This document shows, one piece after another, positions 168-60,475 of a stretch of 64,000 nucleotides of DNA. The DNA is taken from positions 38,709 to 102,708 of the forward strand of contig CAYQJB010000001.1 in assembly GCA_964417855.1 (NCBI GenBank). Direction: 5' to 3'. Position 1 is the stretch's first letter; every line of letters begins with the position of its first letter. A program made the translations under genes and the position numbers. Below the pieces are notes generated by a model. It was not told the DNA's origin. It saw only the letters and a list, made by a program, of their open reading frames with translations, and did no database searches. Source of the DNA: an uncultured Candidatus Saccharibacteria bacterium (GTDB lineage Bacteria; Patescibacteriota; Minisyncoccia; Phycocordibacterales; CAIZLB01).

Positions 168-212
168 GTCGGTAATATTACGATAATTTTACCCATAAGT
201 CCACGACTATTT

Positions 213-240
213 GGGGTCAGGCACCATGGTGCCTGACCCC
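213..240. repeat. perfect 28-bp palindrome GGGGTCAGGCACCATGGTGCCTGACCCC, copy 1 of 4
   Basis: Read directly. Flanked TT..AAA. Identical or near-identical copies at 43242-43269, 44111-44138 and 53423-53450. Confidence 0.9.
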
Positions 241-252
241 AAAAAACAAAAA

Positions 253-1515: not shown

Positions 1516-1573
1516 AAAAATAAACCCGAGCTTAGCGTCTCGAATTTATTGATTACAACAAGTACATACAGAA

Positions 1574-4009
1574 CTACCTCCCCACCACCCCTCTCGTCAT
1601 CTTCCCAAAGAATCCCGTACCTGGTACCTTGTTCGCCTTCTGGAACTTGATAAGCGCAGCCTTGGTAGCGGGGCCAAAGTATGTAGTCTCCTTTCCTTTG
1701 GAACCAACACCTGTCTTTGCAATAGCAAAGCCATTGTTGTTCAAGAACTTCTGTAGTTGTAGTACATCATTGTTTCTCATACCAAGTCTAAGGTCTTTGG
1801 TGAAGTCGTACTTTGTTGATGAAGTTGTAATACCACATGCTTGACCTGTGACTGTACTGAATAGGTTTCCGGAAGCACAACCAATGTTGTTTGATGTCGT
1901 GCTTGATGAGACAAGAGTAGCAAGGAGAGCTGGAGGATAATATCCACCACCTCCTCCCCCACCAGAAGATACAACAATACTTGGATCAGCAGATGTGGTG
2001 AAAGACATTACAGAAGTTGTAGAAGTGTTTGAGTCAGCATCGGTTGAAGTGATTTGGTAATAGTATGTAGTGCTGTAGCTTAAGTTTGGGAGTATCACAT
2101 AGTGTGATGTTGAAGCAAATGATGCATCGGTTGTTGTTGAGGTTGTAACAGATGAGTCTGTTCCATAGTTTAATCCAGTTGTTGCTCCCTTGTCTGTGTT
2201 CCAAGAGATTGTAGCTTGAAGACCAGATAGTGAGACGGCGGTGTTTGTAATTACAGATGGTATTGTTAAGCCAAAGATACCAAATGTTGAGAAGTGTGTT
2301 GTTGGGCAAGTTACGGTGTGAAGTCCAGTATCAACTACACAAGATGATAGCGGAGACCATACAGATCCATCAGTACTGAATATTGTAAGGGTTGAGGGAT
2401 CAGTGACACCAAGTGTTGCTGGGTTATACGTTAGGGTGATGAATAATGGATTGGTGAATGTTGTAAGGGTTGAAGTTGCTGTTGGCATTGCTTGCAATTG
2501 ATACAGTGAGTTGAATAGATTGTATCTTGCTGGTTTGCCGAGAGTGGAGATGACGGTTGTTGTTGCGAGTTCTGTGGCTTCGAACTGGGCGGTGGTTGTT
2601 GTTGCGGAGAAGCCGGTGGGGATGGTTAGGTGTAGGTTTCCCAGACTGAGTGTTCCCAGGTTGCTGATTGCAGTTGAGGTTGATTGAATGTATGTGGTGT
2701 TTGCTATACAGCCCGATGTTTTAAAGGAGTAGTTGGGGGAGGTGGCAGGATTGCTGTATATATCCATTACATCGTATTTATAATTATATGTGGTGCATGG
2801 AAGGAGGTTGGTGATGTTAAAGGAAGATGTTGTTGAAGCGGTTGATGTTGATACTGTATCAGTGTATATACTTGGTGCGAGACCGTATGATACTGATGAT
2901 GTTGCTGATTTGTCCGTAGTGAAGGAGATGGTTGAGGTAGATACTCCGGCTGAGAGGCTGTTGTTGGAGATTATTGGGGTGGTGAAGGAGATGGTGCCAC
3001 TGTGATCTAGTGAAGTTATTGTGAGACCATCATAAGAGACAAATAATCTTCCAGGAGTTGAATCAAACGTTGCGTTAGTACCAAACACGTTCGAATCCGA
3101 AGAACGAACAAAAGCAGTACCTCCGTCTATAGAACTATACAAAAACCAATTACCTGCATCCGGTGTACGACCTGCAAACACCTTCATTCCATCATAGGAT
3201 GAAGCAATCTTTCCCCATCCTGCAGTAACTCCAGGTATATCATAATATGTCCAAGATAAACCATCATTTATGGATGTGTATATCTTAGAGTCAGCATCAT
3301 CAGCCCAAAATAAATGACTTCCATCAGGAGAATATTTAAAGCCCATCAAAGTCCCAACCACTGTTGGAAAAGTAGCGGATCTATCTACCCAAGTCGCACC
3401 ACTAGTTGTTGATACATAAAATTTATTAACACCATTAGAAATAGATATTTTTGTACTACTTGCTGACATAGTGAGATAGTTCCAATATCCAGACGGTATA
3501 CTAGAAGTTGCCCAGGTCGCACCACTTGTTGTTGAATAATATAAATACGGCGCAGTATTATTGGTTAAAAATAAATTTACGCCACTAGCTGATGACCACA
3601 TGTCTTTCCATTGTGTATGCGGTATAGAATTTACAGAAGTACTTGTCGCCCACGTTAAACCACTATCTATCGAATACCATATATTTGTATTTGTTTTTAG
3701 CCATAATTTTGTAAAATCGTCTGACCCCGTTATACTTATACCCATATCGGACCATGTACTTGTACCCAATTGACTGATTGGAGTAAAGGTAGCGCCGCTT
3801 GTAGTTGAAATGTTGATAGATCTGGTTCCGCCCCTAACGCCAACGATATTCCTGCCATCAGAAGATACAAAGTTAGTGTAAGACGTTTGAGTAAAATTTT
3901 TTTCCACGTGGGCAGTAGAAGCTTCAGCTTTTTTATACTCAACAGGACATAAAACAATCGAAAACAAGAACAATGACAAGGTAATCAGTTTAAGATTATT
4001 TTTTAACAT
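1574..4009 (-). CDS. secreted cell-surface protein with BNR/Asp-box repeats, poly-Gly linker and C-terminal peptidoglycan-binding (PG_binding_1-like) domain
   Basis: Signal peptide. Repeated S-x-D/S-G-x-T-W/F boxes (YSTTSGATW, SIDSGLTW, SINDGLSW). GGGGGGGYYPP linker. C-terminal DVLQLQKFLNNNGF...FGPATKAALIKFQ motif. Confidence 0.55.
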   Translation of the reverse strand: MLKNNLKLITLSLFLFSIVLCPVEYKKAEASTAHVEKNFTQTSYTNFVSSDGRNIVGVRGGTRSINISTTSGATFTPISQLGTSTWSDMGISITGSDDFTKLWLKTNTNIWYSIDSGLTWATSTSVNSIPHTQWKDMWSSASGVNLFLTNNTAPYLYYSTTSGATWATSSIPSGYWNYLTMSASSTKISISNGVNKFYVSTTSGATWVDRSATFPTVVGTLMGFKYSPDGSHLFWADDADSKIYTSINDGLSWTYYDIPGVTAGWGKIASSYDGMKVFAGRTPDAGNWFLYSSIDGGTAFVRSSDSNVFGTNATFDSTPGRLFVSYDGLTITSLDHSGTISFTTPIISNNSLSAGVSTSTISFTTDKSATSSVSYGLAPSIYTDTVSTSTASTTSSFNITNLLPCTTYNYKYDVMDIYSNPATSPNYSFKTSGCIANTTYIQSTSTAISNLGTLSLGNLHLTIPTGFSATTTTAQFEATELATTTVISTLGKPARYNLFNSLYQLQAMPTATSTLTTFTNPLFITLTYNPATLGVTDPSTLTIFSTDGSVWSPLSSCVVDTGLHTVTCPTTHFSTFGIFGLTIPSVITNTAVSLSGLQATISWNTDKGATTGLNYGTDSSVTTSTTTDASFASTSHYVILPNLSYSTTYYYQITSTDADSNTSTTSVMSFTTSADPSIVVSSGGGGGGGYYPPALLATLVSSSTTSNNIGCASGNLFSTVTGQACGITTSSTKYDFTKDLRLGMRNNDVLQLQKFLNNNGFAIAKTGVGSKGKETTYFGPATKAALIKFQKANKVPGTGFFGKMTRGVVGR

Positions 4010-25659: not shown

Positions 25660-27267
25660 TTAGTCAATGAAAGTAAGAGCCTTACCTTTCTTATCACTTC
25701 TACCTGTTCTACCAATACGGTGAACATAGTCATCATGAGTTTCAGGTAATTCATAGTTAATAACGTGAGATACGTTAGGTATATCAAGTCCACGTGCAGC
25801 AACGTCAGTTGCAACAAGCATTTGAACTTCACCATCCTTGAAAGACTTTAGAGCACGTTGACGTTGAGTATGAACCTTGTCTCCGTGAATAGATGCTGCT
25901 TTGAAACCACGTTCTGCAAGCATTGTTGTTAGCTTCTCTACACCATGCTTTGTTCTTCCAAAAATAATAACCTTTTGAAATTCTGGATTGATCAATAGAT
26001 CATGAAGAATATCAATTTTTGTTCCTCCCTTAACATAGACAACATCTTGATCAACGTTCTTTGCGGTATCTCTAGTTTTAACAGAAATACGAATTGGGTT
26101 TTTCAAGAAGTCATTAATGATTCTTTCAATATCAGGAGACAATGTAGCTGAGAAGAAAAGAGTTTGTCTTTCCTTTGGCATAAGACTCATAACGTATTTC
26201 ATATCGTTAATGAATCCCATATCAAGCATACGGTCAGCCTCATCAAGAACTAAGTTCTTGAAGTTTGAAAGATTTAATTTCTTTCGCTCGATAAGGTCCT
26301 TCAGACGTCCTGGAGTTCCAATTATAAAGTTGTTGAAATATCTTAGTTCAGAAATTTGTCTTCCGATTGGCGCTCCACCAACACAACAAACTGAATAGAT
26401 TTTTAATCCTTTAATAAAAGATTGTAATTCTTGATCAATTTGAATAGCTAGTTCACGAGTTGGGGCCATTATAATAGCCTGCTCATCAGGATTTATAAGA
26501 ACCTTGTTTATAAGTGGTAAAAGAAAAGCTGCTGTTTTACCAGTACCTGTATTTGCAATACCTACCAAGTCTTCCCCATTAAGAATATGGGGAATTGTTT
26601 TATCTTGAATTGGTGAAGGTGTTATGTAACCTTTTGCGATTACACTTTTCTTTAGAGTTTCTTCGATTTTAAAATCGCTGAAAGTATTCTCTGGTACGTA
26701 AACCTCTACCTTGTCATCAGTTGTAGCTTTGTTGATGAATCTTGAAACATCAAGACGTGCACCACCTCTTGCTCCACCGCGACCACGGTTACCACCAAAG
26801 TTTCCTCTGCCACCGAATCTACTTGCTCCACCTCCAAATCCACCGCGTGAACCACCGTTTCCTCCGGCGTATCCACCACGACTTCCTGATGAAGCTCCGT
26901 ATGAAGAACCTCCACCAAAAGATGAACCGTCACGTGAACTTGCACGTGAGCTGTATGAAGAACCACCAGATGAACGTCCACCAGCAGATGATCCGCTGTA
27001 TGAAGAACCACCATGACTTGCGCCAGATGTTCCTCTTGATGATCCACCATAAGATGAACCACCACGTGATGCACCGTATGAAGAACCTCCAGATCTTGGG
27101 GCGCTTGATGAAGTGCTTTTATTTAATGAACCACCGTATACACCAGTAAAAGCAGCGTTACTAGCTGATCTTGGAGCACTAGAACTACGAGGCGCTGATT
27201 TACGAGCTCCTCCTGTTGTACCACGAGTAATATTGTTTCTATTGCTAGAAGTTGTTTTATTATACAT
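25660..27267 (-). CDS. DEAD-box ATP-dependent RNA helicase with approx 170-aa N-terminal Gly/Ser/Arg-rich (RGG/SAPR) low-complexity extension
   Basis: Q-motif, GTGKT, DEAD, SAT and HRIGRTGR motifs. The N-terminus repeats SAPR, GGSSY and RGG. Confidence 0.85.
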   Translation of the reverse strand: MYNKTTSSNRNNITRGTTGGARKSAPRSSSAPRSASNAAFTGVYGGSLNKSTSSSAPRSGGSSYGASRGGSSYGGSSRGTSGASHGGSSYSGSSAGGRSSGGSSYSSRASSRDGSSFGGGSSYGASSGSRGGYAGGNGGSRGGFGGGASRFGGRGNFGGNRGRGGARGGARLDVSRFINKATTDDKVEVYVPENTFSDFKIEETLKKSVIAKGYITPSPIQDKTIPHILNGEDLVGIANTGTGKTAAFLLPLINKVLINPDEQAIIMAPTRELAIQIDQELQSFIKGLKIYSVCCVGGAPIGRQISELRYFNNFIIGTPGRLKDLIERKKLNLSNFKNLVLDEADRMLDMGFINDMKYVMSLMPKERQTLFFSATLSPDIERIINDFLKNPIRISVKTRDTAKNVDQDVVYVKGGTKIDILHDLLINPEFQKVIIFGRTKHGVEKLTTMLAERGFKAASIHGDKVHTQRQRALKSFKDGEVQMLVATDVAARGLDIPNVSHVINYELPETHDDYVHRIGRTGRSDKKGKALTFID

Positions 27268-27334
27268 ATTATTTAAGACTCTTTCTAAAAAGAAAGAGGT
27301 TTGATTTCCATTTATTTATGGAAAACTGAATTAG

Positions 27335-27374
27335 TCTTTAGAGATATACGTAAGGCGACTAGAAATCTCTAAAG
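27335..27374 (-). promoter_or_regulatory. 10-bp inverted repeat CTTTAGAGAT-N20-ATCTCTAAAG within the approx 230-nt helicase 5' leader
   Basis: Read directly. Confidence 0.3.
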
Positions 27375-27498
27375 TTTCGAAAAGTATATAGTTTGTGTGA
27401 AATATCCACGCAAAACCCATGAGAGATTAACTTACCCCTGTAGTATGTACTATTTTGATGCTTTTGTCAAATGAGCGATTGGGTGCTTATTGAGCAAC

Positions 27499-27526
27499 CA
27501 AAAAACCCCGAGATTCGGGGTTTTTT
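27499..27526. terminator. bidirectional terminator AAAAAACCCCGAGATTCGGGGTTTTTT
   Basis: Read directly, downstream of 27551-27748. Confidence 0.75.
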
Positions 27527-27550
27527 GGTGTATTGAGATTAACTCTTTAC

Positions 27551-27748
27551 TTATGCGACTACTTCTTCTGCTGCTGGAGCAACTTCTTCAACTGGGGCTA
27601 CTTCCTCTGCTGCAACTGTAGCAACTTCCTCTGTAGGAGCTTCTACTGTAGCATCAGCTGCAACCTCTGCAGAGGCCTCAACTGTAACCTCCGCTGCAAC
27701 TACTGCATCATCAGCTACACCTGTAACAATTGTTTGTTCATCTGTCAT
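27551..27748 (-). CDS. small acidic Ala/Glu/Val-rich protein
   Basis: ORF with its own terminator; composition only. Confidence 0.4.
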   Translation of the reverse strand: MTDEQTIVTGVADDAVVAAEVTVEASAEVAADATVEAPTEEVATVAAEEVAPVEEVAPAAEEVVA

Positions 27749-27816
27749 ATAATTATTATAAGATTAGATATTATTAAAAACGACCAAGGGAGTATACTAC
27801 ACATGTTCTGTATGTA

Positions 27817-28653
27817 CTAATTTATTAGTTTTTCTATAATTTTTTTTGTCTCCTCCGGTCCACTTACCTGAATACAATCAACACCCGTCATTTTTGCAGC
27901 ATAGTCATTTCCTCCGGGAAATATTTTATCACCAACAAAAACCATCTTGATGATTGGAATCTTCAAGAATTCTTCAAGTTTATGAATTCCATATGCTTTA
28001 TTCACCCCTTTCATGGTTATATCAATTGATGTAGATCCACCCATTGATACATCAAAATTTGGAAGTCTCTCCTTAAGAATATCAACTGCAACCTTACGTT
28101 TTGCTCCATTTGGATCCCAAGCATTCTTAAGCTCAAGCGGGGCTTCTTGTCCAAGCGCCGAAAATGTTATTTGTGATTCCCTATCCTCAATAATTTGCCC
28201 ATATGTTTTTTCTGGAGTTTCTATACCAGCTTCAAGTAATGCCTCCTTAAGCGTTTTCAAAATAGTTTTTTTGTCATCCTCAGATAAATTTTCTGAATAC
28301 TCTTCATACCAGACTCCAACTGCACCCACTTTTTTTCCGCCAGAATTTTCCCTTTCCCCTTCACGTTCACCAATCATCTTCCAAGAATAAAGTCTGGTAC
28401 CTGAAGTAGGTAATAAAAATAAATTTTGAAAGTACTTTGCAGAAAGTTCATCTTTAGGCAAATTTCCTAAAAATTGTTTCTCAAATTGAGCATATTTTCC
28501 ACCAGAAATAACAGCGACCTTTCTTCCTTCTAGGAGTTTAATAATTAGGCCTGCCATCTCACTATCCAGTGCAGACTTGCTGGCAGCAAGGGTTCCGTCT
28601 AAATCGAAAATGATTAACTCTTTCTCCAGACTACCTTTATGTTCTAAGCTCAT
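27817..28653 (-). CDS. HAD-IIB eukaryotic-type phosphomannomutase-like enzyme
   Basis: FDLDGTL, VAVISGGKYAQFEKQFLGN and VGDKIFPGGNDY align with human PMM2 (FDVDGTL, IGVVGGSDFEKVQEQLGND, FGDKTMPGGNDH). Confidence 0.6.
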   Translation of the reverse strand: MSLEHKGSLEKELIIFDLDGTLAASKSALDSEMAGLIIKLLEGRKVAVISGGKYAQFEKQFLGNLPKDELSAKYFQNLFLLPTSGTRLYSWKMIGEREGERENSGGKKVGAVGVWYEEYSENLSEDDKKTILKTLKEALLEAGIETPEKTYGQIIEDRESQITFSALGQEAPLELKNAWDPNGAKRKVAVDILKERLPNFDVSMGGSTSIDITMKGVNKAYGIHKLEEFLKIPIIKMVFVGDKIFPGGNDYAAKMTGVDCIQVSGPEETKKIIEKLIN

Positions 28654-28654
28654 A

Positions 28655-30559
28655 TTATATTCTTAGTTTATGCAACAAATCCTTCAAAACAATTGTTGCA
28701 ACGCCAATAACACTGTCTCCTGCTCCATAATAAATATAAGCTCTTTCATCTCTTAGAACCAAACTACATGGGAATACAACCTTAGGAACAAGACCATTTA
28801 ATTCATAAGGATCTTCTGGCTCAAAAATTGGAGCTGCAGTTCTTGCTTTTACAATTGTTGGATTTTCTAAATCCAAGAGCACAGCACCCACACGATACGT
28901 TTTATTTTTTGAAATACCATGATACAAAAGAAGCCATCCTTCTTCTGTCTTTATTGGAGGGCCTGCAATACCAACCTTAACACCATCCCACATACCAGGT
29001 TGCGGATTCAATACTTCTATACATCTACTAATTTTTTCTTTAGTAAAATCAAGTGTTGCAACAAAGTCTGCGCAAATACTTGTGTTAACTCTGTGTATTA
29101 TCATGTACTTACCACCAATTTTCTCAGGAAAAATTACAGCGTCTTTATTAGGTATATTTGACGGAGTAATAACATTTGGCATTTCCCAATTATCCCATTT
29201 TCTATTCACAAAATCTTCAATAGAAATGGAACTTACTGCAACACGCGGGGTAACACCATCATAGGCAGTGTATGTCATGTAAATTCTTCCTTCAATTTCT
29301 ATAATACGAGGGTCTTCACATCCATAATTTCCACTAGCTCCAATGCTTCTTTCAAAATCGGTACGGGGTGAATAAATTGGAGTATTAGGCCTTTCGTCGA
29401 TTTTTAAACCATCACTACTTACAGCATAACCAAGGACAGAGAGATTGGTTGACGATGCTGCTCTGTAGATAATATGAGTTTGACCGTTAATATTAATTGC
29501 CGCTGGATTAATTGTTCCACCAGCTTCCCAAAGAAGCCCTTGTCGTGGAGTGATTATTGGATTCCCAGCAAAGCGCTTAAATTTATGTTCAAGCTTAGAA
29601 TCCGTCATCATATCCAAAAGATTTTCCATATATATAGTAGCTGTAGCACAGTGTGTATCAGCTGCTCCGTAGAATATTTCCAATCTTCCTTCCTTAACTA
29701 GTGCTCCTGTTGGAAATACAATATTTATAATATGCCCAGTCTTTTCATAATATGTATCAGGCACCATAAATGGACCCTTTGTTCTTCCCACAATACGTCT
29801 TGGATCTACTAAATCAAGCAAAACGGCCTCAACACCAAAAACAGGAGCCGAACTATTGTATTCCTGAATATGTGAATATATAAAAAGCCACCCCTTATCT
29901 GTTCTTATTGGAGGTGTCCCCATCTCAACCTGTTCATTATCTTTTCTTCTAAGAATTATTTTATGAACATCCATGTGCGCCATCCACTCTATCCACTTAT
30001 TTTCATTCCACATATCTTCAACGTTATCAAACTCTGCATAGCAAATATCGGACATTTTAAGATCTGTATTTACAGTAAGAAGCGCTGCAAACTTTCCATT
30101 TATTTTTTCTGGAAACAGGACCATCGCCTTTGCATTAAAGGGTGTAATAAGGTGTTTCTCCCTAACTGTTTCCAAATCATCAGATATTGCAACAGCAACC
30201 TTTATATTGTCCGATGAATATGGGTAACCCCCAAGTGCTGTATAAAAAATATAATATGTGTCATCAACCTTGGTAATTCTTGGATCCTCGCAACCAGCTT
30301 TATCGTAATCTGTATTTGGACCAAAGAAAACTTTCCTATCTTCAAAATGCACCCCATCATCTGCTATTCCAACACCAATTACAGAAGTACTTATATACGG
30401 GTACAAAAGAAGGTCTGGGCGTGACATTGCTCTATAGAAAAGATATGTCTTATCTCCTTTTACTATTGGACACCCATTAAACGATGCGCTAGCCTCCCAT
30501 GGATGATCCTTAATTGGTGATAATATTGGATTGTGTTCTGATCTGGTTAATGTAAACAT
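28655..30559 (-). CDS. tandem double-domain GH130-family glycoside phosphorylase/hydrolase
   Basis: Two repeats of the GH130 pattern (NPIL..FNP...YRA, GCEDPRI..YTA, FPEKI, GWL..YH, YYGAAD). Confidence 0.7.
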   Translation of the reverse strand: MFTLTRSEHNPILSPIKDHPWEASASFNGCPIVKGDKTYLFYRAMSRPDLLLYPYISTSVIGVGIADDGVHFEDRKVFFGPNTDYDKAGCEDPRITKVDDTYYIFYTALGGYPYSSDNIKVAVAISDDLETVREKHLITPFNAKAMVLFPEKINGKFAALLTVNTDLKMSDICYAEFDNVEDMWNENKWIEWMAHMDVHKIILRRKDNEQVEMGTPPIRTDKGWLFIYSHIQEYNSSAPVFGVEAVLLDLVDPRRIVGRTKGPFMVPDTYYEKTGHIINIVFPTGALVKEGRLEIFYGAADTHCATATIYMENLLDMMTDSKLEHKFKRFAGNPIITPRQGLLWEAGGTINPAAININGQTHIIYRAASSTNLSVLGYAVSSDGLKIDERPNTPIYSPRTDFERSIGASGNYGCEDPRIIEIEGRIYMTYTAYDGVTPRVAVSSISIEDFVNRKWDNWEMPNVITPSNIPNKDAVIFPEKIGGKYMIIHRVNTSICADFVATLDFTKEKISRCIEVLNPQPGMWDGVKVGIAGPPIKTEEGWLLLYHGISKNKTYRVGAVLLDLENPTIVKARTAAPIFEPEDPYELNGLVPKVVFPCSLVLRDERAYIYYGAGDSVIGVATIVLKDLLHKLRI

Positions 30560-30603
30560 GTTTTATTCTTTGGTTATATTTTATTTATTATCGATATCTT
30601 TTC

Positions 30604-31734
30604 CTAAACCTTTCCGTAGGTTACCAACCAATCTAATAGTGGTTTCAAAGGGGTCTTTGCAACACAAACATGTTTATCACCACCTCCATAATAAACATAC
30701 AGATCATCATCTTGAAGAATTGCACCTGAAGCATATACAACACCCGGTTTTTCATCATTCTCATAATTCTCTACAGGCTCAAGTATTGGCGAAGGAGAAC
30801 GATACAAAATCTTTGTTGGATCTTCAAAATCCAAAATCATACATCCTAACTTATATTTATTTGGATCACTCTTATCCATTGCGTGGTACAAAAGTAACCA
30901 ACCGATTTCTGTTCTGATAGGTGGTGATCCCGCACCTCTTACCCAATTATCCCACTGATCCTCTCTTCCTCCTGAAGGCGCGGAGCTTTGAATAAATTCT
31001 TCATCGATACGATCAATGTCATCAATATATCCAATTCTAATTTCTGGAGAAATACTGTGAATTACAGCAAATTTTCCATTTAGCTTTTCTGGAAATAATA
31101 CCCAATTTTTATTTATGTCTTTTGCAGATGAAATAAATTTTGGTTTTTTCCAATTCCATTTTCCTTTTTTAAAATCCTCCATTGAAATAGAGGTCAATGC
31201 CATACGCACTGATCCCCAACCTTCAAAAGCTGTGTAGGTCATGTAAATACGATCACCAATCACAACTGCCCTTGGGTCTTCAGTTCCTCCCCATCCTCCA
31301 CCAGAAGCGTAAACCATTGGATTATAAAAATGCGGTCTATCCTCCTCGCATTCATTTTCTATACAAAAAGTTGAGACAGAGACATAAACAGGATAATTAT
31401 ACCTTTCATCAAAAACAATTCCGTCCTGACTATTTGCATATCCAATACGTGAAAGTCCATCATCCCCCACAGCTCTGTATAACATATGAACAACACCGTC
31501 ATCATCTTTTATGATTGCAGGGTTGAATGTTCCAATGTTCTCCCATTTATTTAGGAGAGAAGGACTTATAACAGGATTGTTTACATTACGATCCAGATGA
31601 ATACCGTCTACGGAGACTTCTGGAGTCTTAATTGAGATCTGCTTCTTTCTGAAAATCGAAACGATAAGCACCCCTAGAAATATAATCGCTAATACCCAAA
31701 ATGGGTTTGTTATTATTTCTTTTAAATTAGGCAT
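30604..31734 (-). CDS. GH130-family protein with N-terminal TM anchor
   Basis: NPVISP..FNPAII..YRAVG, GTEDPRAVVIGDRIYMTYTA and GWLLLYHA motifs. Confidence 0.65.
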   Translation of the reverse strand: MPNLKEIITNPFWVLAIIFLGVLIVSIFRKKQISIKTPEVSVDGIHLDRNVNNPVISPSLLNKWENIGTFNPAIIKDDDGVVHMLYRAVGDDGLSRIGYANSQDGIVFDERYNYPVYVSVSTFCIENECEEDRPHFYNPMVYASGGGWGGTEDPRAVVIGDRIYMTYTAFEGWGSVRMALTSISMEDFKKGKWNWKKPKFISSAKDINKNWVLFPEKLNGKFAVIHSISPEIRIGYIDDIDRIDEEFIQSSAPSGGREDQWDNWVRGAGSPPIRTEIGWLLLYHAMDKSDPNKYKLGCMILDFEDPTKILYRSPSPILEPVENYENDEKPGVVYASGAILQDDDLYVYYGGGDKHVCVAKTPLKPLLDWLVTYGKV

Positions 31735-31740
31735 TTATTT

Positions 31741-32121
31741 TTACTTTACTCTATTGTATTTATCCTCAATACGAACGATGTCTTCCTCATCAAAAGTTCC
31801 GTATGCTATTTCTAAAAAAGTGACATTCTCATCACCAGCTTCAATTCTGTGTAACATCTTTCTAGGAATGAATAGCTCAAGACCTGCTTTTATTTCTATT
31901 TTCTCTTCGCCTACTGTAGCTATTCCGTTACCAGAAAGGATGTACCAGAACTCATCACGCGAATCATGATATTGCAAACTAAAAGCTTGACCACTGTTTA
32001 CAGTAATAGTCTTTACCGTACAGGGTAAATTTTCCACAAATTTTACAAAATCACCCCAAGGGCGTTTTTCCTTATATGATTTTGGGGGATTTTCTATTGT
32101 AAATTGTGTTGTCATTTGCAT
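31741..32121 (-). CDS. small cupin, phosphomannose-isomerase (type II C-terminal)-like
   Basis: Cupin motifs G(X)5HxH-like (SLQYHDSRDEFWYILSG) and IPRKMLHRIEA. Confidence 0.5.
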   Translation of the reverse strand: MQMTTQFTIENPPKSYKEKRPWGDFVKFVENLPCTVKTITVNSGQAFSLQYHDSRDEFWYILSGNGIATVGEEKIEIKAGLELFIPRKMLHRIEAGDENVTFLEIAYGTFDEEDIVRIEDKYNRVK

Positions 32122-32176
32122 TGATTATTATATCACAACGTGCCCTTTTTTTGTCTATTTGTTTGTACTTATTGCA

Positions 32177-33451
32177 TTACCAGGCCTTAATCTTTGTATT
32201 TACAAAGATTCTATACTTTTCTAGGTTGTCTTGTTCTCTTTTGGAGACATTAATGCTTACTGGAATTTTATCAGCATCGAGTGGTAGAACTGTATAATAT
32301 TTGTTTCCATTTTTGTCTGACCCTCTCTTTACCCATGTACCCATAAAATCTGGTGTTATAGACAGAGTACTACTGCCATTAACCCTGCTGGGATTAATTT
32401 CTTTTGTAATTTCAAGCTTAAGTATTCCTCCAAGGTCCGTATATGGATTGGTCATTCCAGACACAAAATTTCCAAGTGAATATATAACTAGACACTTTTC
32501 ACCATTAGTACTTTTCAAAAATGTTATAGGTTCCAGTACATGAGGATGATCTCCTAGAACAATATTTGCACCACTGTTACATGCCAGCTGTGCAAGTTCT
32601 CGTTGAGATGCATTCTCTTGTAATTTATACTCTACCCCAAAATGTAATGCTGTCACAATTACATCAACATTTTGTTTTTTTAAATCATTTATGTCCCTTA
32701 CTATTTGCTCTTTATTAATATATGAAAGCATTCCAGATTTACTTTTAGGTAATGTTAGGCCGTTTGTATCATAAGTATATGAAACAAAACCAAATTTAAG
32801 TCCGTTCTTTTCAGTAATTTGATAATTAGAAATAGGTGAAACAATTCCATTTGGTAATGAACTTGTGCCAGATAGAGCAATTTTAGTATCGGGCTGAATT
32901 CTAGCACCCAATCCAATTAAGCCAGAATTCTCGACATTCTTAATTGTATTCGTAAGGCCTACAACACCCCTATCGAGCGCGTGATTATTTGCCAAAGACA
33001 CATGAGTAAAATAATTATTTTTTAATTCAGTTAATATTTCTGCAGGAGCATTAAACCTTGGATACCCAGAGTATTTTAATTCCTTTCCTGCAATTGGCGT
33101 TTCTAAATTAGCATAAACAATATCCGCATTATTTAAATACGGTTTTATGTTTACAAAAAAACTTGAGAAATCATATTTACCATTTTTTTTATTATAAGTA
33201 GCATCAAGTTGTGCCTGATGCATCATAATATCTCCAACAGCGAGAAGCGTCACCTTTCTAACCACTGGGGCCGGCTCAACTTGTTTTATAGAGTCAGCTC
33301 CCGCAACCTGCGCGGAGAGACTTGATTCTACTTTTTTAAAATATTTACCATATTGTGTGTTTACAAAAAAACCTCCGATTATGAAAACAGCTGTTGCTGT
33401 TAGGTAAAATGCATAATGACTAATTCTTCCTGATTGATTTTTGAGTATCAT
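32177..33451 (-). CDS. CapA/PgsA-family metallophosphoesterase
   Basis: GDIMMH, NLETPI, ANNHALD and GDHPHV metallophosphatase motifs. Confidence 0.65.
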   Translation of the reverse strand: MILKNQSGRISHYAFYLTATAVFIIGGFFVNTQYGKYFKKVESSLSAQVAGADSIKQVEPAPVVRKVTLLAVGDIMMHQAQLDATYNKKNGKYDFSSFFVNIKPYLNNADIVYANLETPIAGKELKYSGYPRFNAPAEILTELKNNYFTHVSLANNHALDRGVVGLTNTIKNVENSGLIGLGARIQPDTKIALSGTSSLPNGIVSPISNYQITEKNGLKFGFVSYTYDTNGLTLPKSKSGMLSYINKEQIVRDINDLKKQNVDVIVTALHFGVEYKLQENASQRELAQLACNSGANIVLGDHPHVLEPITFLKSTNGEKCLVIYSLGNFVSGMTNPYTDLGGILKLEITKEINPSRVNGSSTLSITPDFMGTWVKRGSDKNGNKYYTVLPLDADKIPVSINVSKREQDNLEKYRIFVNTKIKAW

Positions 33452-33468
33452 TTTATATTATATCTTTA

Positions 33469-34032
33469 TTATTCAGCTTCATTAAAATTTTCAGCATTTT
33501 GAATCATAAATTCCCGAACACTTTTTAATGCAATATTTCGCATTGCAAAAGAAGACCTTTCTTCATCTAACATTTCGGCGTATGTTTTATCATATCCATC
33601 TGGAATGAATATAGATGACCAGCCAAAACTATTTGTGCCCTTTGGTGAATCAGAAATAGTACCAGACATTGATCCATCAAATAGATGAACAGTTTCTCCA
33701 TCGCAAAAACCATAGCAAACTTTAGCTGTACATCTCCTATCTTTTCCATCAATAAGTCTACAAAGGCCTTCATTTTCAAGTTCTTTTAAAAACCATTTAA
33801 TTAGTGGGCCAGGCAGTTTTCCCAAGGCATGAAAAACAAAAGAGACATCCTCCACAAGAACAGGTTTTCCAATTTTACTATATGCACGCAAAGCTTTATC
33901 TTTTACAATTTCTTCTAGATCTAAAGATTGTATTTCTTCCAAATCAAGTGAATGATGGTCTATTTCAAGACCTAGGTACCTACTAACCTCTTCGGCCTTT
34001 CCAGCATTTCCAGTTATAAAGGTTATTTTCAT
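33469..34032 (-). CDS. non-canonical purine NTP pyrophosphatase (Ham1/RdgB family)
   Basis: ITFITGNAGKAEE start and conserved C-terminus. Confidence 0.7.
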   Translation of the reverse strand: MKITFITGNAGKAEEVSRYLGLEIDHHSLDLEEIQSLDLEEIVKDKALRAYSKIGKPVLVEDVSFVFHALGKLPGPLIKWFLKELENEGLCRLIDGKDRRCTAKVCYGFCDGETVHLFDGSMSGTISDSPKGTNSFGWSSIFIPDGYDKTYAEMLDEERSSFAMRNIALKSVREFMIQNAENFNEAE

Positions 34033-34080
34033 ACATTTAATATATCATATAACACCCCGGGGAAGAACTTCTTTTTAATG

Positions 34081-34860
34081 CTAAAGTTTACTGTATAGTA
34101 ATTTAAAAATTTTAGTTTGAAACTGAGCAATCATCTCATTTTCTATAACAATTGCTGTCTTACTATTATAATCAATCAAAGCCACCTTATTTCCATAAAT
34201 GATTTGAGTAATATTTAAATCAAATAAATTATAACTATTTGGTACCGTTCTGACAGATCTGCCAAGTTTTGCATGACCAGCATTTTTTGAGGATTCATCT
34301 GTAATAACTAATCTTTCAAGGGATTTCCTATCTCTTATAATTTTATAATCTGCCGGAACATATTTTTTGCGGGATAATGTCAGTCCAGAACTGTATCTAT
34401 AATAGATAGCGTTTTTGGGTAAACTATGTACAACATCTGAAAACACAGCCTTGATTGCACTATCACCTTCTGTAAAGGTAACGATTGGTTTCTTGTCTCT
34501 CATTTTATAAGTCTCATGAAGTTCATGGATCTCCGCATTAAAGTTATCCTCCAAATCATTAAAAAGTTTTTCTAGCTTTTCTGGAGATTCTGCAACATAC
34601 AACTTATACTTACCTTTTGGCATAGCATTAACTAACCCCAAACTAGATAGATTTGGTAATGCCTTATAAACAGTTGGCCTATGTAATTTTGTCTCTCTTA
34701 TAATATCTGAAATAGAAGCAGGACCTAGTTTCAAAAGACCCTTATAAATCAAGGCTTCTTCTTTACTCATCCCTATTTGTTCCAGTACAGTTTTGTTTAT
34801 TTTCATAAGTTGTAATGTTTTGTTACAACTTAATATATCACTATTAACTATGTAAATCAA
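34081..34860 (-). CDS. TrmB-family HTH transcriptional regulator; real start may be the internal MKINK
   Basis: N-terminal wHTH (ALIYKGLLKLGPASISDIIRETKLHRPTVYKALPNL). Confidence 0.55.
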   Translation of the reverse strand: MIYIVNSDILSCNKTLQLMKINKTVLEQIGMSKEEALIYKGLLKLGPASISDIIRETKLHRPTVYKALPNLSSLGLVNAMPKGKYKLYVAESPEKLEKLFNDLEDNFNAEIHELHETYKMRDKKPIVTFTEGDSAIKAVFSDVVHSLPKNAIYYRYSSGLTLSRKKYVPADYKIIRDRKSLERLVITDESSKNAGHAKLGRSVRTVPNSYNLFDLNITQIIYGNKVALIDYNSKTAIVIENEMIAQFQTKIFKLLYSKL

Positions 34861-34979
34861 GGGTGCTACAGCAGGCTCTCTGTTTAATGTACAAATTTTA
34901 GCATTTTCAAATACAAGTTTGTTGATTTGAACTATAGTTTAATCAGAAAAGAAATTAACAATTAACAGCAAACAAAACC

Positions 34980-35891
34980 ATGAAAAACAAAATCGAAAAC
35001 ACTAGGGTTAAGCAAATTGGGAATATCATTCTTCAAAACCTTGTTCCACAGGCAATACAAATAATTCAAGATGAATGTCATGACCTGACTATAATCAAGA
35101 AGGTTGGCTATGATGGAGTGAAGCCTGACCTTGCAACTAATGGTGACAGAAAAGCACAGGAAATGTACATGCGAGAAATCGCCAAACACTTCCCTGACTT
35201 TGGAATCATCGCCGAGGAAGATGGGGTTGCCTTTGATGGCAAAGATAATGGCGAGGATGGAGAGAAGGGCGAAGATATATATTTCACTATTGATCCACTA
35301 GATGGAACCAAGGCGTATGAACGTGGTGCAGGACAAGGTGTTGGAACAATGATTGCCCTCTGTAAAGACAACGATGTCATTGCAGCTTACATCGGCGACG
35401 CAAACACTGGTGAGACATACGGTTTTGCAGACATGGAAAAAAGAGGCGCAGCCATAAGGCAAAGATTTGGTGTAACAACCAACTTAAAGCCCAGAACTGA
35501 TAAACCTCTAGCTGAACAATATGTACTCTTGCGTGAAATGCCTCGCAAGCAACCCGAGTTAATTAATAAAATGATTAACGATATAACAGCAGGTGGGCTA
35601 TTTAAGGACGCTGAGGTTACAGGAGGAAGTATTGGTACAGCTTTTGCAAGGTTGTGGAAGGGAGAGGTTGGAGCGATGGTTCTTCAGCCAGGATTCAATA
35701 CACCATGGGATCTTGCTCCAACACTTGGTATTAGCCGTAGGCTTGGCTACAAGTTTTTCAAACTTTTAGATGGTAAACTCATTGAGAATGAGCCAATGCT
35801 TACAAAGACTGTTGTTGAGAAACCATACACAGAAATTGTTGTCCATGAAGCTCATGAAAAGGAATTGATGGAGTGGTTGAAGGTTAATTAA
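34980..35891 (+). CDS. inositol monophosphatase/FBPase-family phosphatase
   Basis: DPLDGT and WDLAP metal-binding motifs. Confidence 0.6.
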   Translation: MKNKIENTRVKQIGNIILQNLVPQAIQIIQDECHDLTIIKKVGYDGVKPDLATNGDRKAQEMYMREIAKHFPDFGIIAEEDGVAFDGKDNGEDGEKGEDIYFTIDPLDGTKAYERGAGQGVGTMIALCKDNDVIAAYIGDANTGETYGFADMEKRGAAIRQRFGVTTNLKPRTDKPLAEQYVLLREMPRKQPELINKMINDITAGGLFKDAEVTGGSIGTAFARLWKGEVGAMVLQPGFNTPWDLAPTLGISRRLGYKFFKLLDGKLIENEPMLTKTVVEKPYTEIVVHEAHEKELMEWLKVN

Positions 35892-56691: not shown

Positions 56692-57324
56692 TTAGTATTG
56701 TACATCCAGACCTCTTTCTACCGTTCTTGGATTTGCAGTATTACAACCTATTTTATCGGCTGTTACACCAGAATTATATCCTCTAGAAATAATTCTGGTG
56801 TAGGGTACGTTTTCTGTATTACCCAAATCATCTGTTGCACTATTATAACCTTTAGCAATCACGACTTTTGCACAAGACGGATATCCATCGGTATTATTTG
56901 AATAATCAATAATTAAAGTTGAGGTTGCTGCATCAAAAGACACCATTTTTGATGCATATATTTTACCAGCTCCGCAACGAATAGTTGCATTTTCGGTGGG
57001 TATAGGTATAGGTGTAGGTGTAGCTGCGACAACAGTAGAAGATGCAGAAAATGGACCATCATCCAAAACATTTGTTCCATCAGCATTTTTTACATCCCAA
57101 AACTGTACACATTCAGAGCCAGAGTCAGCTGCATAAAAAGCAATCTGTGAATCTTTTCCTGAGCCTGCAAGAAGTAATTGCTTCAAAATAATATTCCCAA
57201 TAGAAAAACCAACAGCAAGCAGAAGGCTTGAGACAACCATAGCCACAAAGAGTGTAAAACCAGAAGATCTGCTTTCTCTTGTGCTGTTCTTTTTGTTTTT
57301 CATCAGTTTATTTAAATTAATCAT
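56692..57324 (-). CDS. minor type IV pilin/pseudopilin
   Basis: Prepilin N-terminus GFTLFVAMVVSSLLLAVG. Confidence 0.6.
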   Translation of the reverse strand: MINLNKLMKNKKNSTRESRSSGFTLFVAMVVSSLLLAVGFSIGNIILKQLLLAGSGKDSQIAFYAADSGSECVQFWDVKNADGTNVLDDGPFSASSTVVAATPTPIPIPTENATIRCGAGKIYASKMVSFDAATSTLIIDYSNNTDGYPSCAKVVIAKGYNSATDDLGNTENVPYTRIISRGYNSGVTADKIGCNTANPRTVERGLDVQY

Positions 57325-57345
57325 ATTGTAATTATATTACTTAAA

Positions 57346-58005
57346 TTATAAACCATTTTTAGAAGCCCAGTTTGTAAAATACTCTTTTAAAGTAAGCTTT
57401 GATTGACTACTTCCAGTTTTCCAATACATATTCACAACCATAACAATTTCTTGCGGGACTGCCGGTTGAGTACCTGTAGGCATAGGTACTCTTTCAAAAT
57501 ATATCTCTCTTTTAAATATAGAATCTGTTACTACACTCCCTGTTGTTTTACCAAAAATACCATCCCCAATCTTTAAAAAATTATCATTGTATGCATCAAA
57601 TTGATATCCACCAACACCTATAGTCAAGGATACTGTATTTGTCTTAGTAGTTGCAGCATTAGGAGCCGTCAGTATCATCTTGGTTCCGAATACACCGTCA
57701 GCTGTATTATCTCCAAGCCATATTCTTCTATCAGCATATTTCGCATTATCAACGTAAAACCCCGTAATTCCAATGCTCTGAACATCTCTCAAATTCCTTA
57801 CATATTCAATTGCCTCCTGCGCCAGATAATAAGCGGTCATTTGGTCTCTTGTGTAATACGATGAATGCAAAGCCTGCGCAATAATTCCGAGAGGCCCAAT
57901 AACAGCAATTGTCAAAATAGAAATTGCGACCAAAGTTTCTACCATAGTTAAGCCTGCGTTACTTCTCACCTTACCAATATTTAATTTTATTTTTTTCAGG
58001 AACAT
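57346..58005 (-). CDS. minor type IV pilin/pseudopilin
   Basis: GLTMVETLVAISILTIAVIGPL. Confidence 0.6.
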   Translation of the reverse strand: MFLKKIKLNIGKVRSNAGLTMVETLVAISILTIAVIGPLGIIAQALHSSYYTRDQMTAYYLAQEAIEYVRNLRDVQSIGITGFYVDNAKYADRRIWLGDNTADGVFGTKMILTAPNAATTKTNTVSLTIGVGGYQFDAYNDNFLKIGDGIFGKTTGSVVTDSIFKREIYFERVPMPTGTQPAVPQEIVMVVNMYWKTGSSQSKLTLKEYFTNWASKNGL

Positions 58006-58010
58006 ATTTA

Positions 58011-58652
58011 TTATTTTGGTAGATTTAGATTTCTTTGAGAAATATATGTCTGCACTGTAAAATCAGAAGTCTGGGTTGGGTTCACATTTGCCGTTCCATT
58101 CATCGTAAGAAACACACTCGGTTGACCAGTATAATTTGCAGAGATGGGATTACTCACAACAAATTTTAAATCCTTAATATCAACTTCTGGTGATGTTAAT
58201 GGATATTGGGAAACGACTTCGGACCCTGTGCGGGTTTCTTTCCATATTCTACCCTTACCGTCTGTCACTTCACGATAATATCTAACACCTCTTTTTTCAC
58301 CTGTAATTGTGGATACTAGGGAAATAGAGAAGAACGACGTATTGGGAGTACAACCATTATCACCAGATAGATTAGAAGTCGTGGATGCTGAAATAACATT
58401 CACAGTACAGGTGTAAGCATATCCTGTTTTAATGTCTCTGACCATACTTTCGACTGCAAAGTTTAAGTTATTAGCTACAGCATTTATTGCTTGAGCTTTT
58501 TTGTTACCATCAACGATAGATAAGATTGCTCCAAGACTCAGAGTCATAACCATAGCAAATAAACTAACAGAAACCATAACCTCAATAAGGGTAAAACCTC
58601 TTTTTTGATTGGTATTCTTTTCAGTTTTATTTTTATTATTATTTCTAATCAT
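58011..58652 (-). CDS. minor type IV pilin/pseudopilin
   Basis: GFTLIEVMVSVSLFAMVM. Confidence 0.6.
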   Translation of the reverse strand: MIRNNNKNKTEKNTNQKRGFTLIEVMVSVSLFAMVMTLSLGAILSIVDGNKKAQAINAVANNLNFAVESMVRDIKTGYAYTCTVNVISASTTSNLSGDNGCTPNTSFFSISLVSTITGEKRGVRYYREVTDGKGRIWKETRTGSEVVSQYPLTSPEVDIKDLKFVVSNPISANYTGQPSVFLTMNGTANVNPTQTSDFTVQTYISQRNLNLPK

Positions 58653-58694
58653 TTTTTTATTATTTACTATTTTTCAATAGAACCTCACATTATT

Positions 58695-59396: not shown

Positions 59397-59437
59397 TAGC
59401 TATATTGTAACACAACAGAAAACAAGAAAATAGTAAA

Positions 59438-60442: not shown

Positions 60443-60475
60443 ACTCGGTTTTTAATTCTCCCAAACTATGTCAAA

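Follow-up and report, generated by a model that had tools for sequence, protein, structure and literature searches.

A compact group of four genes in a 64,000-nucleotide stretch of DNA from an uncultured Candidatus Saccharibacteria bacterium (the window) raises the question of which mannosides its GH130 proteins act on and whether these are taken up from outside or belong to the cell itself. An earlier note on this DNA had read the genes as a mannoside-salvage block, and we examined that reading gene by gene.

Organization and conservation of the locus

The interval 27817-32121 of the window is filled exactly by four open reading frames on the same strand, separated in the order cupin, single GH130, tandem GH130 and HAD protein by 6, 44 and 1 nt:

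31741-32121, minus strand: ORF of 126 aa, cupin of the phosphomannose isomerase (PMI) type
30604-31734, minus strand: ORF of 376 aa, single GH130 with N-terminal membrane helix
31651-31716, minus strand: hydrophobic segment, the membrane helix of the single GH130 (about residues 7-28)
28655-30559, minus strand: ORF of 634 aa, tandem GH130-GH130 protein
29594-30559, minus strand: N-terminal GH130 propeller of the tandem protein (residues 1-322)
28658-29593, minus strand: C-terminal GH130 propeller of the tandem protein (residues 323-634)
27817-28653, minus strand: ORF of 278 aa, HAD-IIB protein of the phosphomannomutase (PMM) family

Since the same four proteins were called on 19 independent contigs and the gene order of the block is kept in distant genomes, these are real genes and not chance ORFs. 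With matching Pfam domains, the four-gene block of the earlier note is thereby confirmed, and its domain assignments, tandem fusion and membrane helix also proved correct by Pfam, the ORF calls and the hydrophobic segment.

We found the tandem gene in at least 592 species-representative genomes, almost all of them Patescibacteria, so the fusion, called unusual in the earlier note, is in fact widespread in this group. The single GH130 gene adjoins it in 78 of the 80 loci examined. Of 51 loci whose flanks were complete, 37 have the cupin gene, 35 the HAD gene and 32 both, which places each near the tandem gene in about 70% of loci, and approximately 22% of well-flanked loci have neither nearby. 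The block has kept 50-76% identity across groundwater, lake, sludge and soil genomes, and no further conserved neighbour, sugar-related or other, stands beside it in the 80 genomes. Far from being a one-off, it is thus an operon conserved among Patescibacteria (class Paceibacteria and relatives). A degenerate extra GH130-like domain has been added at the N-terminus of the neighbouring GH130 in other lineages.

Linkage specificity and active sites of the GH130 domains

We drew the residues diagnostic for GH130 enzymes from Li et al. 2020 (PMC7660257, Table 2), Cuskin et al. 2015 (PMC4599007), Ladeveze et al. 2025 (PMC12814180) and Franceus et al. 2024 (PMC10913872), and mapped them onto 80 N-domains and 80 C-domains of the tandem protein and 67 single-domain orthologues. 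A Glu before the catalytic Asp together with a Lys at the R150 position is the signature of beta-1,2 enzymes, whereas beta-1,4 enzymes carry Tyr and Arg (PMC7660257). All three GH130 domains of the window have the catalytic Asp as well as the Glu/Lys pair, and the pair recurs in each of the three orthologue groups. Beta-1,2 enzymes matched at E 1e-42 to 1e-67 and beta-1,4 enzymes at E 1e-17 to 1e-29, the closest relatives being two GH130_6 enzymes of Thermoanaerobacter sp. X-514, the 1,2-beta-oligomannan phosphorylase Teth514_1788 and the beta-1,2-mannobiose phosphorylase Teth514_1789. Because of the Glu/Lys pair and these best matches, the predicted substrates are beta-1,2-mannosides.

The 634-aa protein matched PF04041 (Glyco_hydro_130) at E 3e-101 in two stretches, scored 440.8 bits on NCBIfam NF052550, slightly below the cut-off of 450, and was modelled by AlphaFold2 as two beta-propellers (pLDDT 89, pTM 0.83). 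Its closest sequences and structures are Teth514_1788 and Teth514_1789, which share with the window GH130s the Glu/Lys signature, a short L2 loop and the lack of a signal peptide; the two Thermoanaerobacter proteins are encoded side by side, whereas the tandem protein is a single polypeptide. The C-domain best matched Teth514_1788 in the PDB (212 bits, 40% identity, Foldseek TM 0.88-0.90), and its R366, E415, D416, K472, H489-R490, K528, H547, Y555-R556 and D615 are each kept in 80 of 80 orthologues, as are the equivalents of UhgbMP R168 and H231. With the full set of catalytic and phosphate-binding residues, it is predicted to be a canonical inverting beta-1,2-(oligo)mannoside phosphorylase, which would catalyse beta-1,2-Man(n) + Pi <-> beta-1,2-Man(n-1) + alpha-Man-1-P.

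The N-domain best matched Teth514_1789 (168 bits, 35% identity; only 59 bits against 5A7V), yet unlike that enzyme it lacks the phosphate site. R43, E91, D92, K144 and D301 are invariant in all 80 orthologues; the R168 equivalent, however, is T162 (T/S/G, Arg in none of the 80), S229 stands where H231 would be, Q210 (H/Q) takes the third basic position, and the Tyr-Arg pair is replaced by F241-G242. This mapping is supported by the AlphaFold2 model, in which N-domain strand 156-163 corresponds to C-domain strand 484-491. Near the former phosphate site D166, E212 and E244 are invariant, and a Glu in the phosphate site distinguishes GH130 mannosidases from phosphorylases (PMC4599007). In the GH130_3 beta-1,2-mannosidases BT3780 and BACOVA_03624 of Bacteroides the basic phosphate ligands are lost, Asp, Glu and Lys are kept and the pocket holds carboxylates (PMC4599007); the N-domain has changed in a similar way, its Glu residues being candidate counterparts of BT3780 Glu227/Glu268, and differs from these secreted enzymes in subfamily. 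With the catalytic Asp and the beta-1,2 subsite kept and the phosphate site replaced, the N-domain thus resembles a hydrolase-like or otherwise non-phosphorylase enzyme.

The 376-aa protein, a third GH130 paralogue beyond the Teth514_1788/1789 pair, matched PF04041 at E 4e-40 and, in the PDB, Teth514_1788 (E 2e-45) followed by Teth514_1789. Its R87, E152, D153, K209, H284 and D353 are conserved, but the UhgbMP R168 equivalent is S227, with Ser, Ala, Asn or Gly in 67 of 67 orthologues and Arg in none, and the third basic residue is shifted by one position (V265/R266). A HMMER ungapped alignment to Teth514_1788 independently gave the same changes, HR to HS and RV to VR. The claim of three GH130 phosphorylases therefore stands only in part, the catalytic Asp being present in all three domains and the phosphate-binding residues in the tandem C-domain only. 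The tethered paralogue would be a poor phosphorylase, perhaps with a transferase or priming function. In the related family GT108 the same pocket position is His in GDP-mannose-dependent transferases, as opposed to the Ser, Ala, Asn or Gly seen here, and active-site residues by themselves do not decide between transferase and phosphorylase activity in that family (Franceus et al., PMC10913872). As to the orientation of the protein, one Lys/Arg precedes the helix and four lie in the 15 residues after it, and in orthologues bearing the helix the usual counts are 0-1 before it and 3-6 after it. This charge distribution places the N-terminus outside and the catalytic domain in the cytoplasm, so the anchored domain is most likely not an outward-facing scavenger. 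The helix is absent from many orthologues, the more distant ones having no hydrophobic segment.

The mutase and the cupin

The HAD protein scored 45 bits on PF03332 PMM (cut-off 22) and 61 bits on TIGR01484 HAD-SF-IIB. Its best PDB match was the L. lactis alpha-phosphoglucomutase 4BND (E 1e-32, 31.6% identity over 269 aa), followed by PMM2, PMM1 and protist PMMs, and every PDB match down to E 3e-6 was a PMM or an alpha-PGM; as anticipated earlier, it groups with PMM-family mutases and not with Cof-type phosphatases. In 55 orthologues the DxDGT motif (D17, D19) is kept, together with EDR..QITFSALGQ in the cap and GGNDY. We therefore predict a phosphohexomutase of the PMM/alpha-PGM family, which would interconvert Man-1-P and Man-6-P reversibly. 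A mutase of this type had been considered unusual in a bacterium; L. lactis PgmH (4BND), a bacterial enzyme from the eukaryotic-type PMM family with the same SA(I/L)GQ...K..WDP cap motif and GGNDY, is however a characterised precedent. PgmH is a glucose-phosphate mutase, whereas the HAD protein lies in a mannoside operon, and since the closest characterised relative is a phosphoglucomutase, the assignment of PMM activity rests on this operon context. PgmH is said, after Neves et al. 2006, not to use mannose phosphates.

The cupin, which the earlier note likened to the C-terminal domain of type II PMI, bears out that resemblance: it scored 64.8 bits on PF01050 MannoseP_isomer (cut-off 23.6) and aligned to positions 360-467 of the 467 of TIGR01479 GMP_PMI, at 63 bits far below the equivalog cut-off of 373. 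RPWG, SLQxH..R.E.W (Q50, H52, E57), H91 and a C-terminal FDE.DI.R..D.YGR motif are kept in 58 orthologues. The type II PMI domain of the AlgA/XanB/ManC-type GMP-PMI proteins has in common with it RPWG, SLQxH..R.E.W and an EDDI.R..D.YGR-like C-terminal motif, the cupin covering the last ~108 profile positions; unlike them it is a stand-alone protein of 126 aa without a guanylyltransferase domain. We found no solved structure close to it and, in the literature, no biochemical validation of stand-alone PF01050 cupins. It is a homologue of the type II PMI C-terminal catalytic domain, from which we infer that it would interconvert Man-6-P and Fru-6-P reversibly.

Role of the block

The proposed route from Man-1-P through Man-6-P to Fru-6-P is coherent, and the module would lead into it from a cytoplasmic beta-1,2-mannoside, with all catalytic domains of the block in the cytoplasm. 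The host or environmental origin of the substrate, in contrast, was an assumption: in the 80 genomes the block has no transporter, binding protein or secreted glycanase as a conserved companion, and no transporter, ManC or kinase lies near it within the window. Because the domains are cytoplasmic and the block is near-universal in the lineage and comes without a transporter or secreted glycanase, we lean to a plausible endogenous, mannogen-like beta-1,2-mannoside pool that would be built and consumed, and give a probability of roughly 0.6 to the four genes being a Patescibacteria operon for cytoplasmic beta-1,2-mannoside metabolism that may act on such a pool. The block would thereby link beta-1,2-mannose chains to central sugar metabolism in ultra-small Patescibacteria. 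To our knowledge, beta-1,2-mannan has never been reported from Patescibacteria carrying it. A parallel exists in the mannogen system of Leishmania, where several paralogous five-bladed propellers (GT108, MTP1-7) act on cytosolic beta-1,2-mannan and a HAD-type PMM of the same family as ours takes part. The GT108 paralogues have Arg in phosphorylases and lack it in transferase-only enzymes, at the pocket position that also varies among the window GH130s (PMC10913872), and the GH130 fold matched GT108 by Foldseek at E 1e-10 with 13-14% identity. Leishmania, however, is a eukaryote whose enzymes belong to a different family, GT108, whereas the block is bacterial and of family GH130, and its polymer and transferase activity are putative.

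The same enzymes could also serve catabolic salvage, in which imported host or environmental beta-1,2-mannooligosaccharides are broken down in the cytoplasm and Man-1-P and mannose enter glycolysis through PMM and PMI at no ATP cost. We consider this possible but the less probable reading. It suits Patescibacteria, which are host-dependent fermentative scavengers, and a phosphorylase fused to a hydrolase-like domain fits stepwise degradation; moreover, all characterised bacterial GH130 phosphorylases have been given a catabolic or salvage role (Thermoanaerobacter; Bacteroides loci, PMC4599007). Its importer would have to be encoded elsewhere, which may be so if gene clustering in these genomes is loose, but the Thermoanaerobacter cluster, by contrast, has an ABC transporter and a GH5 (with a Man-1-P guanylyltransferase and a GT4) where the block has PMI and PMM. 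Beta-1,2-mannans are rare in nature, yet the block persists across all four habitats, and the loss of the phosphate Arg in one paralogue, with no carboxylate gained in return, is hard to explain by degradation alone. Quite unlikely, in our judgement, is a supply role. GDP-mannose synthesis classically begins with PMI and PMM, which would here turn Fru-6-P into Man-1-P destined for GDP-mannose and mannosylation of the cell envelope; the GH130s would serve as a buffer or recycling system for Man-1-P, and the tethered enzyme would make a beta-mannoside associated with the membrane. A GDP-mannose-feeding role was proposed by Chiku et al. for Teth514_1788/1789, and one paralogue is membrane-tethered in the close relatives of the window; however, no conserved Man-1-P guanylyltransferase or glycosyltransferase lies beside the block, about 1.2 Mb of flanks held a single NTP-transferase-like motif, and many orthologues lack the helix.

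The literal earlier model, three phosphorylases releasing Man-1-P from beta-1,4-mannosides or N-glycan Man-GlcNAc, agrees with the Pfam family name (beta-1,4-mannooligosaccharide phosphorylase) and with general knowledge of the family, but these substrates are unsupported and the model is highly improbable, given a Glu/Lys instead of a Tyr/Arg pair in every domain, the far lower scores of beta-1,4 enzymes and phosphate ligands missing from two of the three domains. As for the tandem protein, its N-domain could be a catalytically dead partner in what amounts to a covalent GH130 homodimer with only the C-half working, which we regard as rather unlikely. Teth514_1788 and Uhgb_MS form dimers in which a loop at the interface gives the active site its shape (PMC12814180), AlphaFold2 gives a confident fixed arrangement of the two domains, and the degenerate domain gained by the neighbouring GH130 in other lineages would be a similar case. 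Against this, the proton-donor Asp and four sugar-subsite residues are kept in all 80 N-domains, and the invariant carboxylates around the former phosphate site imply more constraint than a scaffold needs. We infer instead that the tandem protein combines phosphorolytic with hydrolytic cleavage.

Gene content of the block

The interval 27817-32121 contains exactly four ORFs, all on the minus strand and separated by gaps of 6, 44 and 1 nt:

31741-32121, minus strand: cupin, 126 aa; PF01050 MannoseP_isomer
30604-31734, minus strand: single-domain GH130 protein, 376 aa; PF04041
28655-30559, minus strand: tandem GH130-GH130 protein, 634 aa; PF04041 in two stretches
27817-28653, minus strand: HAD-IIB protein, 278 aa; PF03332

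The Pfam profile PF04041 (Glyco_hydro_130; cut-off 26) matched the tandem protein in two stretches with 339 bits (E 3e-101) and the single-domain protein with 138 bits (E 4e-40), and the NCBIfam assignments agreed with Pfam for the four proteins. The cut-off of 450 for NF052550, the NCBIfam equivalog of beta-1,2-mannobiose phosphorylase, was missed by the tandem protein (440.8 bits, summed over its two domains) and by the single-domain protein (198.9 bits). The fold was examined for the tandem protein alone, the AF2 model of which (pLDDT 89) has the five-bladed beta-propeller fold, with GH130 structures as its top Foldseek matches (target TM 0.86-0.90). The block described in the earlier note is confirmed, with its domains and the membrane anchor on one GH130 protein, and the identical tandem protein was called on 19 contigs with the same neighbours on all, including the NCBI MAG GCA_037127815.1 and several lake metagenomes. 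Scanning 27200-35100 for promoters and terminators gave sites no more numerous than in shuffled sequence, and the scan therefore carries no information on transcription units.

Linkage signature of the GH130 domains

The linkage on which a GH130 enzyme acts is set by the residue before the catalytic Asp together with the residue at R150 of UhgbMP, with Tyr/Arg denoting beta-1,4, Glu/Lys beta-1,2 and Glu/Arg beta-1,3 (Li et al. 2020, PMC7660257). We found that the Glu/Lys pair is invariant across all orthologues of the N-domain (residues 1-322 of the tandem protein; E91/K144), the C-domain (residues 323-634; E415/K472) and the single-domain protein (E152/K209), and that the Tyr/Arg pair of beta-1,4 GH130 enzymes is absent from these two positions in all three domains. 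The best solved relatives of all three are Teth514_1788 and Teth514_1789, beta-1,2-mannoside phosphorylases of Thermoanaerobacter sp. X-514, far below which the beta-1,4 enzymes score. The beta-1,4-mannosides and N-glycans that had been put forward as substrates in the earlier note are therefore not supported. The chain-length-limiting Trp of Teth514_1789, W120, is also absent from all three domains, and we drew no firm prediction of chain length.

Phosphate pockets of the GH130 domains

To assign the pockets we used the diagnostic residues of Li et al. 2020 (PMC7660257), namely D104 as donor, R168 and H231 as phosphate ligands, and R59, Y103, R150 and D304 at subsite +1, to which a third basic residue, that of Uhgb_MS in Ladeveze et al. 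2025 (PMC12814180), was added. For the mapping, 80 N-domains, 80 C-domains and 67 single-domain orthologues were aligned with Teth514_1788 and Teth514_1789; the equivalences were derived from published motifs and residue numbers, together with sequences of the two Teth514 proteins reconstructed from HMMER output. The proton-donor Asp, equivalent to D104 of UhgbMP, is kept throughout, as D92 in 80/80 N-domains, D416 in 80/80 C-domains and D153 in 67/67 single-domain proteins.

The C-domain, which matches Teth514_1788 with 212 bits, 40% identity and a Foldseek target TM of 0.88-0.90, retains R366, E415-D416, K472, H489-R490, K528, H547, Y555-R556 and D615 in all 80 orthologues. Among these are its phosphate ligands R490 (equivalent to R168), H547 (equivalent to H231) and K528 (the third basic residue), each present in 80/80, and by this residue pattern the C-domain is predicted to be a canonical phosphorylase.

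The N-domain matches Teth514_1789 with 168 bits and 35% identity, and R43, E91-D92, K144 and D301 are kept in 80/80. Its phosphate ligands are missing across the 80 orthologues, the columns being occupied by T162 (T/S/G), S229 (S/A/C) and Q210 (H/Q), and also by F241-G242, and the loop that follows carries no conserved Arg. D166, E212 and E244 are invariant and lie near the former phosphate site, outside the aligned ligand columns. A 5-residue gap in this domain was placed differently by HMMER and by MAFFT, with no conserved Arg in either alignment, and the match of AF2 strand 156-163 to strand 484-491 supports the MAFFT mapping. GH130 enzymes in which the basic phosphate ligands are gone and that pocket holds Glu residues act as beta-1,2-mannosidases (Cuskin et al., PMC4599007), and the N-domain looks hydrolase-like in its residues. 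When tested against the GH130_3 beta-1,2-mannosidases with NF058598, the score was 198 bits against a cut-off of 550, and a signal peptide is not present.

The single-domain protein has Teth514_1788 as its best solved match (E 2e-45) and is unchanged at the donor Asp, at the subsite residues and at H284, the equivalent of H231. However, an Arg at the R168 equivalent (S227; S/A/N/G) was found in none of the 67 orthologues, and the third basic position is occupied by V/M/T/I, with an Arg displaced by one residue, a shift that would turn it to the opposite face of a beta-strand. The R168-type Arg is a His in the transferase-only enzymes MTP1 and MTP2 of Leishmania, and mutating it lowers or abolishes phosphorylase activity, the position alone being insufficient to predict function (Franceus et al., PMC10913872; Ladeveze et al., PMC12814180). 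Judged by these residues, the single-domain paralogue would be neither a standard phosphorylase nor a hydrolase. The earlier reading of the GH130 domains as phosphorylases thus holds for the catalytic Asp in all three domains and for the full phosphate set in the C-domain, but not for the N-domain, where the ligands are lost, nor for the single-domain protein, where the R168-type Arg is lost.

The HAD and cupin proteins

The HAD protein matched the eukaryotic PMM profile PF03332 of Pfam with 45.3 bits (cut-off 22.4). All of its best 17 PDB matches are PMM or alpha-PGM enzymes, led by the Lactococcus lactis alpha-phosphoglucomutase 4BND (E 1e-32, 31.6% identity) and followed by human PMM2/PMM1 and protist PMMs, and Cof-type phosphatases are absent from these best matches. 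The DxDGT nucleophile motif (D17, D19), a cap motif in common with 4BND and a GGNDY motif are conserved in 55 orthologues. With its C2b cap, DxDxT motif and above-cut-off profile, the protein belongs to the PMM/alpha-PGM family of HAD-IIB proteins and not to the non-PMM HAD-IIB phosphatases, which agrees with the assignment in the earlier note; the four-domain PGM_PMM Pfam families of alpha-D-phosphohexomutase ManB/PGM enzymes were matched by none of the four block proteins. A eukaryotic-type PMM is, however, less unusual in a bacterium than had been suggested, 4BND of L. lactis being a bacterial precedent. Human PMM2 is assayed via its phosphoglucomutase activity, P. falciparum HAD5 has both PMM and PGM activity, and L. 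lactis PgmH is reportedly glucose-specific; for this reason the sugar preference of the HAD protein cannot be read from its sequence. Residues ~93-112 form an insertion of ~20 residues (MIGEREGERENSGGKKVGAV) that is missing in most of the 55 orthologues.

The cupin matched PF01050 with 64.8 bits (cut-off 23.6) and corresponds to the C-terminal catalytic part of type II PMI. Its metal ligands and motifs, that is RPWG, SLQxH..R.E.W (Q50, H52, E57), H91 and the C-terminal motif, are kept in 58 orthologues. A close solved or assayed homologue of the cupin was sought and not found.

Cellular location

No signal sequence is present in the tandem, HAD or cupin proteins, and the 376-aa GH130 protein begins with one hydrophobic helix. 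In this protein and its closer relatives, 0-1 Lys/Arg residues precede the helix and usually 3-6 are found in the 15 residues after it, so that by the positive-inside rule the catalytic domain of the anchored GH130 most likely lies in the cytoplasm. More distant single-domain orthologues have no hydrophobic segment at all, and some have an extra degenerate GH130-like N-terminal domain. From these features the chemistry of the block is predicted to be cytoplasmic. We also considered that the anchored GH130 might be a hydrolase working outside the cell, and rejected this in view of the charge distribution and the anchor-less orthologues.

Distribution and conservation

The tandem protein recurs at full length and 60-76% identity in more than 120 database clusters, the named ones being Patescibacteria, Paceibacterota or Parcubacteria MAGs. 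Scanning one genome per species, we found it encoded in at least 592 genomes, which among the matches listed are nearly all Patescibacteria (Taylor-, Nomura-, Zambryski-, Adler-, Campbell-, Wolfe-, Moraniibacteria and others). For neighbourhood counts 80 related loci were kept, and the presence of the cupin and HAD genes was counted in the 51 that have at least 2.5 kb on both sides. The single-domain GH130 paralogue lies immediately upstream of the tandem gene and on the same strand in 78/80 loci; a cupin orthologue is present in 37 of the 51 well-flanked loci and the HAD gene in 35, with both in 32 and neither in 11. The gene order of the window is the commonest one (25 loci), and the order HAD-cupin-GH130-GH130x2 occurs in 6 loci. 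At the related loci L050, L053, L056, L067, L070, L074, L077 and L084, the 'single-domain' GH130 upstream of the tandem gene is 611-683 aa long, has no membrane helix and is extended at its N-terminus by ~300 aa that form a degenerate GH130-like domain (local HMM E 1e-8 to 1e-18), which gives four GH130-like domains per operon there.

When every ORF flanking the 80 loci was clustered, no transporter, kinase, guanylyltransferase or glycosyltransferase emerged as conserved. The next commonest neighbour families, found in at most 20/80 loci, are housekeeping ones (D-Ala-D-Ala carboxypeptidase, pilins, HisRS, ribosome hibernation factor and formyltransferase). A search for ManC-like (NTP-transferase-type) motifs in the available flanks of related loci and in the window gave one match at one locus, and the rest of the 64-kb window contains no sugar transporter, sugar kinase or Man-1-P guanylyltransferase. 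A TrmB-family sugar-type regulator (34081-34860, minus strand) and, divergent from it, an inositol-monophosphatase-family gene (34980-35891, plus strand) are found two genes upstream of the block. We considered the TrmB-family protein as the operon's regulator and rejected it, since it is not a conserved neighbour and is near the block in only 1/80 related loci.

Proposed role of the block

In the pathway that we envisage, the C-domain would convert beta-1,2-oligomannoside and Pi to alpha-Man-1-P, a step that is based on its residues and is the best supported of all, whereupon the HAD protein would convert Man-1-P to Man-6-P and the cupin Man-6-P to Fru-6-P, as family and context suggest. All three steps would be reversible. 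[quoted passage not shown] Dimers have been reported for Thermoanaerobacter and gut GH130 enzymes (Ladeveze et al. 2025, PMC12814180), and the tandem protein, modelled by AF2 with a pTM of 0.83, may be such a dimer in covalent form.

The beta-1,2-mannosides could be imported or made by the cell itself, and salvage of an imported substrate is a serious rival. We lean towards an endogenous pool because no transporter or glycanase accompanies the block, because the block is kept in many habitats although beta-1,2-mannans are rare (Chiku et al.), and because one paralogue has a transferase-like pocket. Our tentative proposal, to which we give a probability of about 0.3, is that Paceibacteria and related groups both build up and draw on an intracellular reserve of beta-1,2-mannan or oligomannosides, in which the tethered paralogue would act as synthase or primer enzyme, the C-domain as a reversible phosphorylase and the N-domain as a hydrolase making breakdown irreversible, with the PMI and PMM as the link to Fru-6-P. 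Such a reserve would be a bacterial counterpart of Leishmania mannogen, suggested here indirectly by the residue pattern, the cytoplasmic location and the absent transporter.

The GH130, PMM-type and PMI enzyme families are already known. In 2018, CAZy listed only four GH130-GH130 proteins, and of the predicted GH130 phosphorylases >99% had a single module (Li et al., PMC7660257). In the literature searched, GH130 in a candidate-phyla-radiation genome is mentioned by a single paper, in passing. That literature does not describe GH130 domains fused in this way, phosphate pockets that differ between them, a PMM-type mutase and a PMI cupin in the same operon, or conservation throughout the lineage. 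The genomes of Patescibacteria are very small and show few carbohydrate pathways that can be recognised, yet hundreds of their species, found in many different habitats, have kept the block at 50-76% protein identity. Beta-1,2-linkage of mannosides is rare, and the block would mark a large and little-understood section of the bacterial tree as holding a source or sink of such mannosides. Its three related GH130 propellers, which differ in their phosphate pockets, form a natural set in which to ask what turns a GH130 enzyme into a phosphorylase, hydrolase or transferase. Should the substrate be an endogenous reserve, this would be the first storage-polymer cycle of its type described in bacteria.

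Other features of the window

Directly downstream of the HAD gene is a 65-aa, Ala/Val/Glu-rich ORF (27551-27748, minus strand), which was called in every assembly, matches no Pfam family and shows no conservation at related loci. A DEAD-box helicase (25660-27267, minus strand) has a Ser/Gly/Arg-rich N-terminal extension of ~190 aa, the low complexity of which gives several spurious overlapping ORFs. The GenBank contig JBAXXP010000001.1 starts ~1592 nt inside the window, with window positions 1-1592 preceding the contig start, so that the window probably derives from another and longer assembly of this genome. Nearly all genes of the window are carried by the minus strand, almost all 2-kb bins have a negative GC skew, and the cumulative skew drops steadily to -4.1, in keeping with a single replichore. 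At ~56700-64000 (minus strand) we observed a type IV pilus/competence-like cluster with a T2SSE ATPase, a T2SSF protein, several N_methyl prepilins and an A24 prepilin peptidase, downstream of which are a RelB/YafQ toxin-antitoxin pair and a LAGLIDADG-like ORF.
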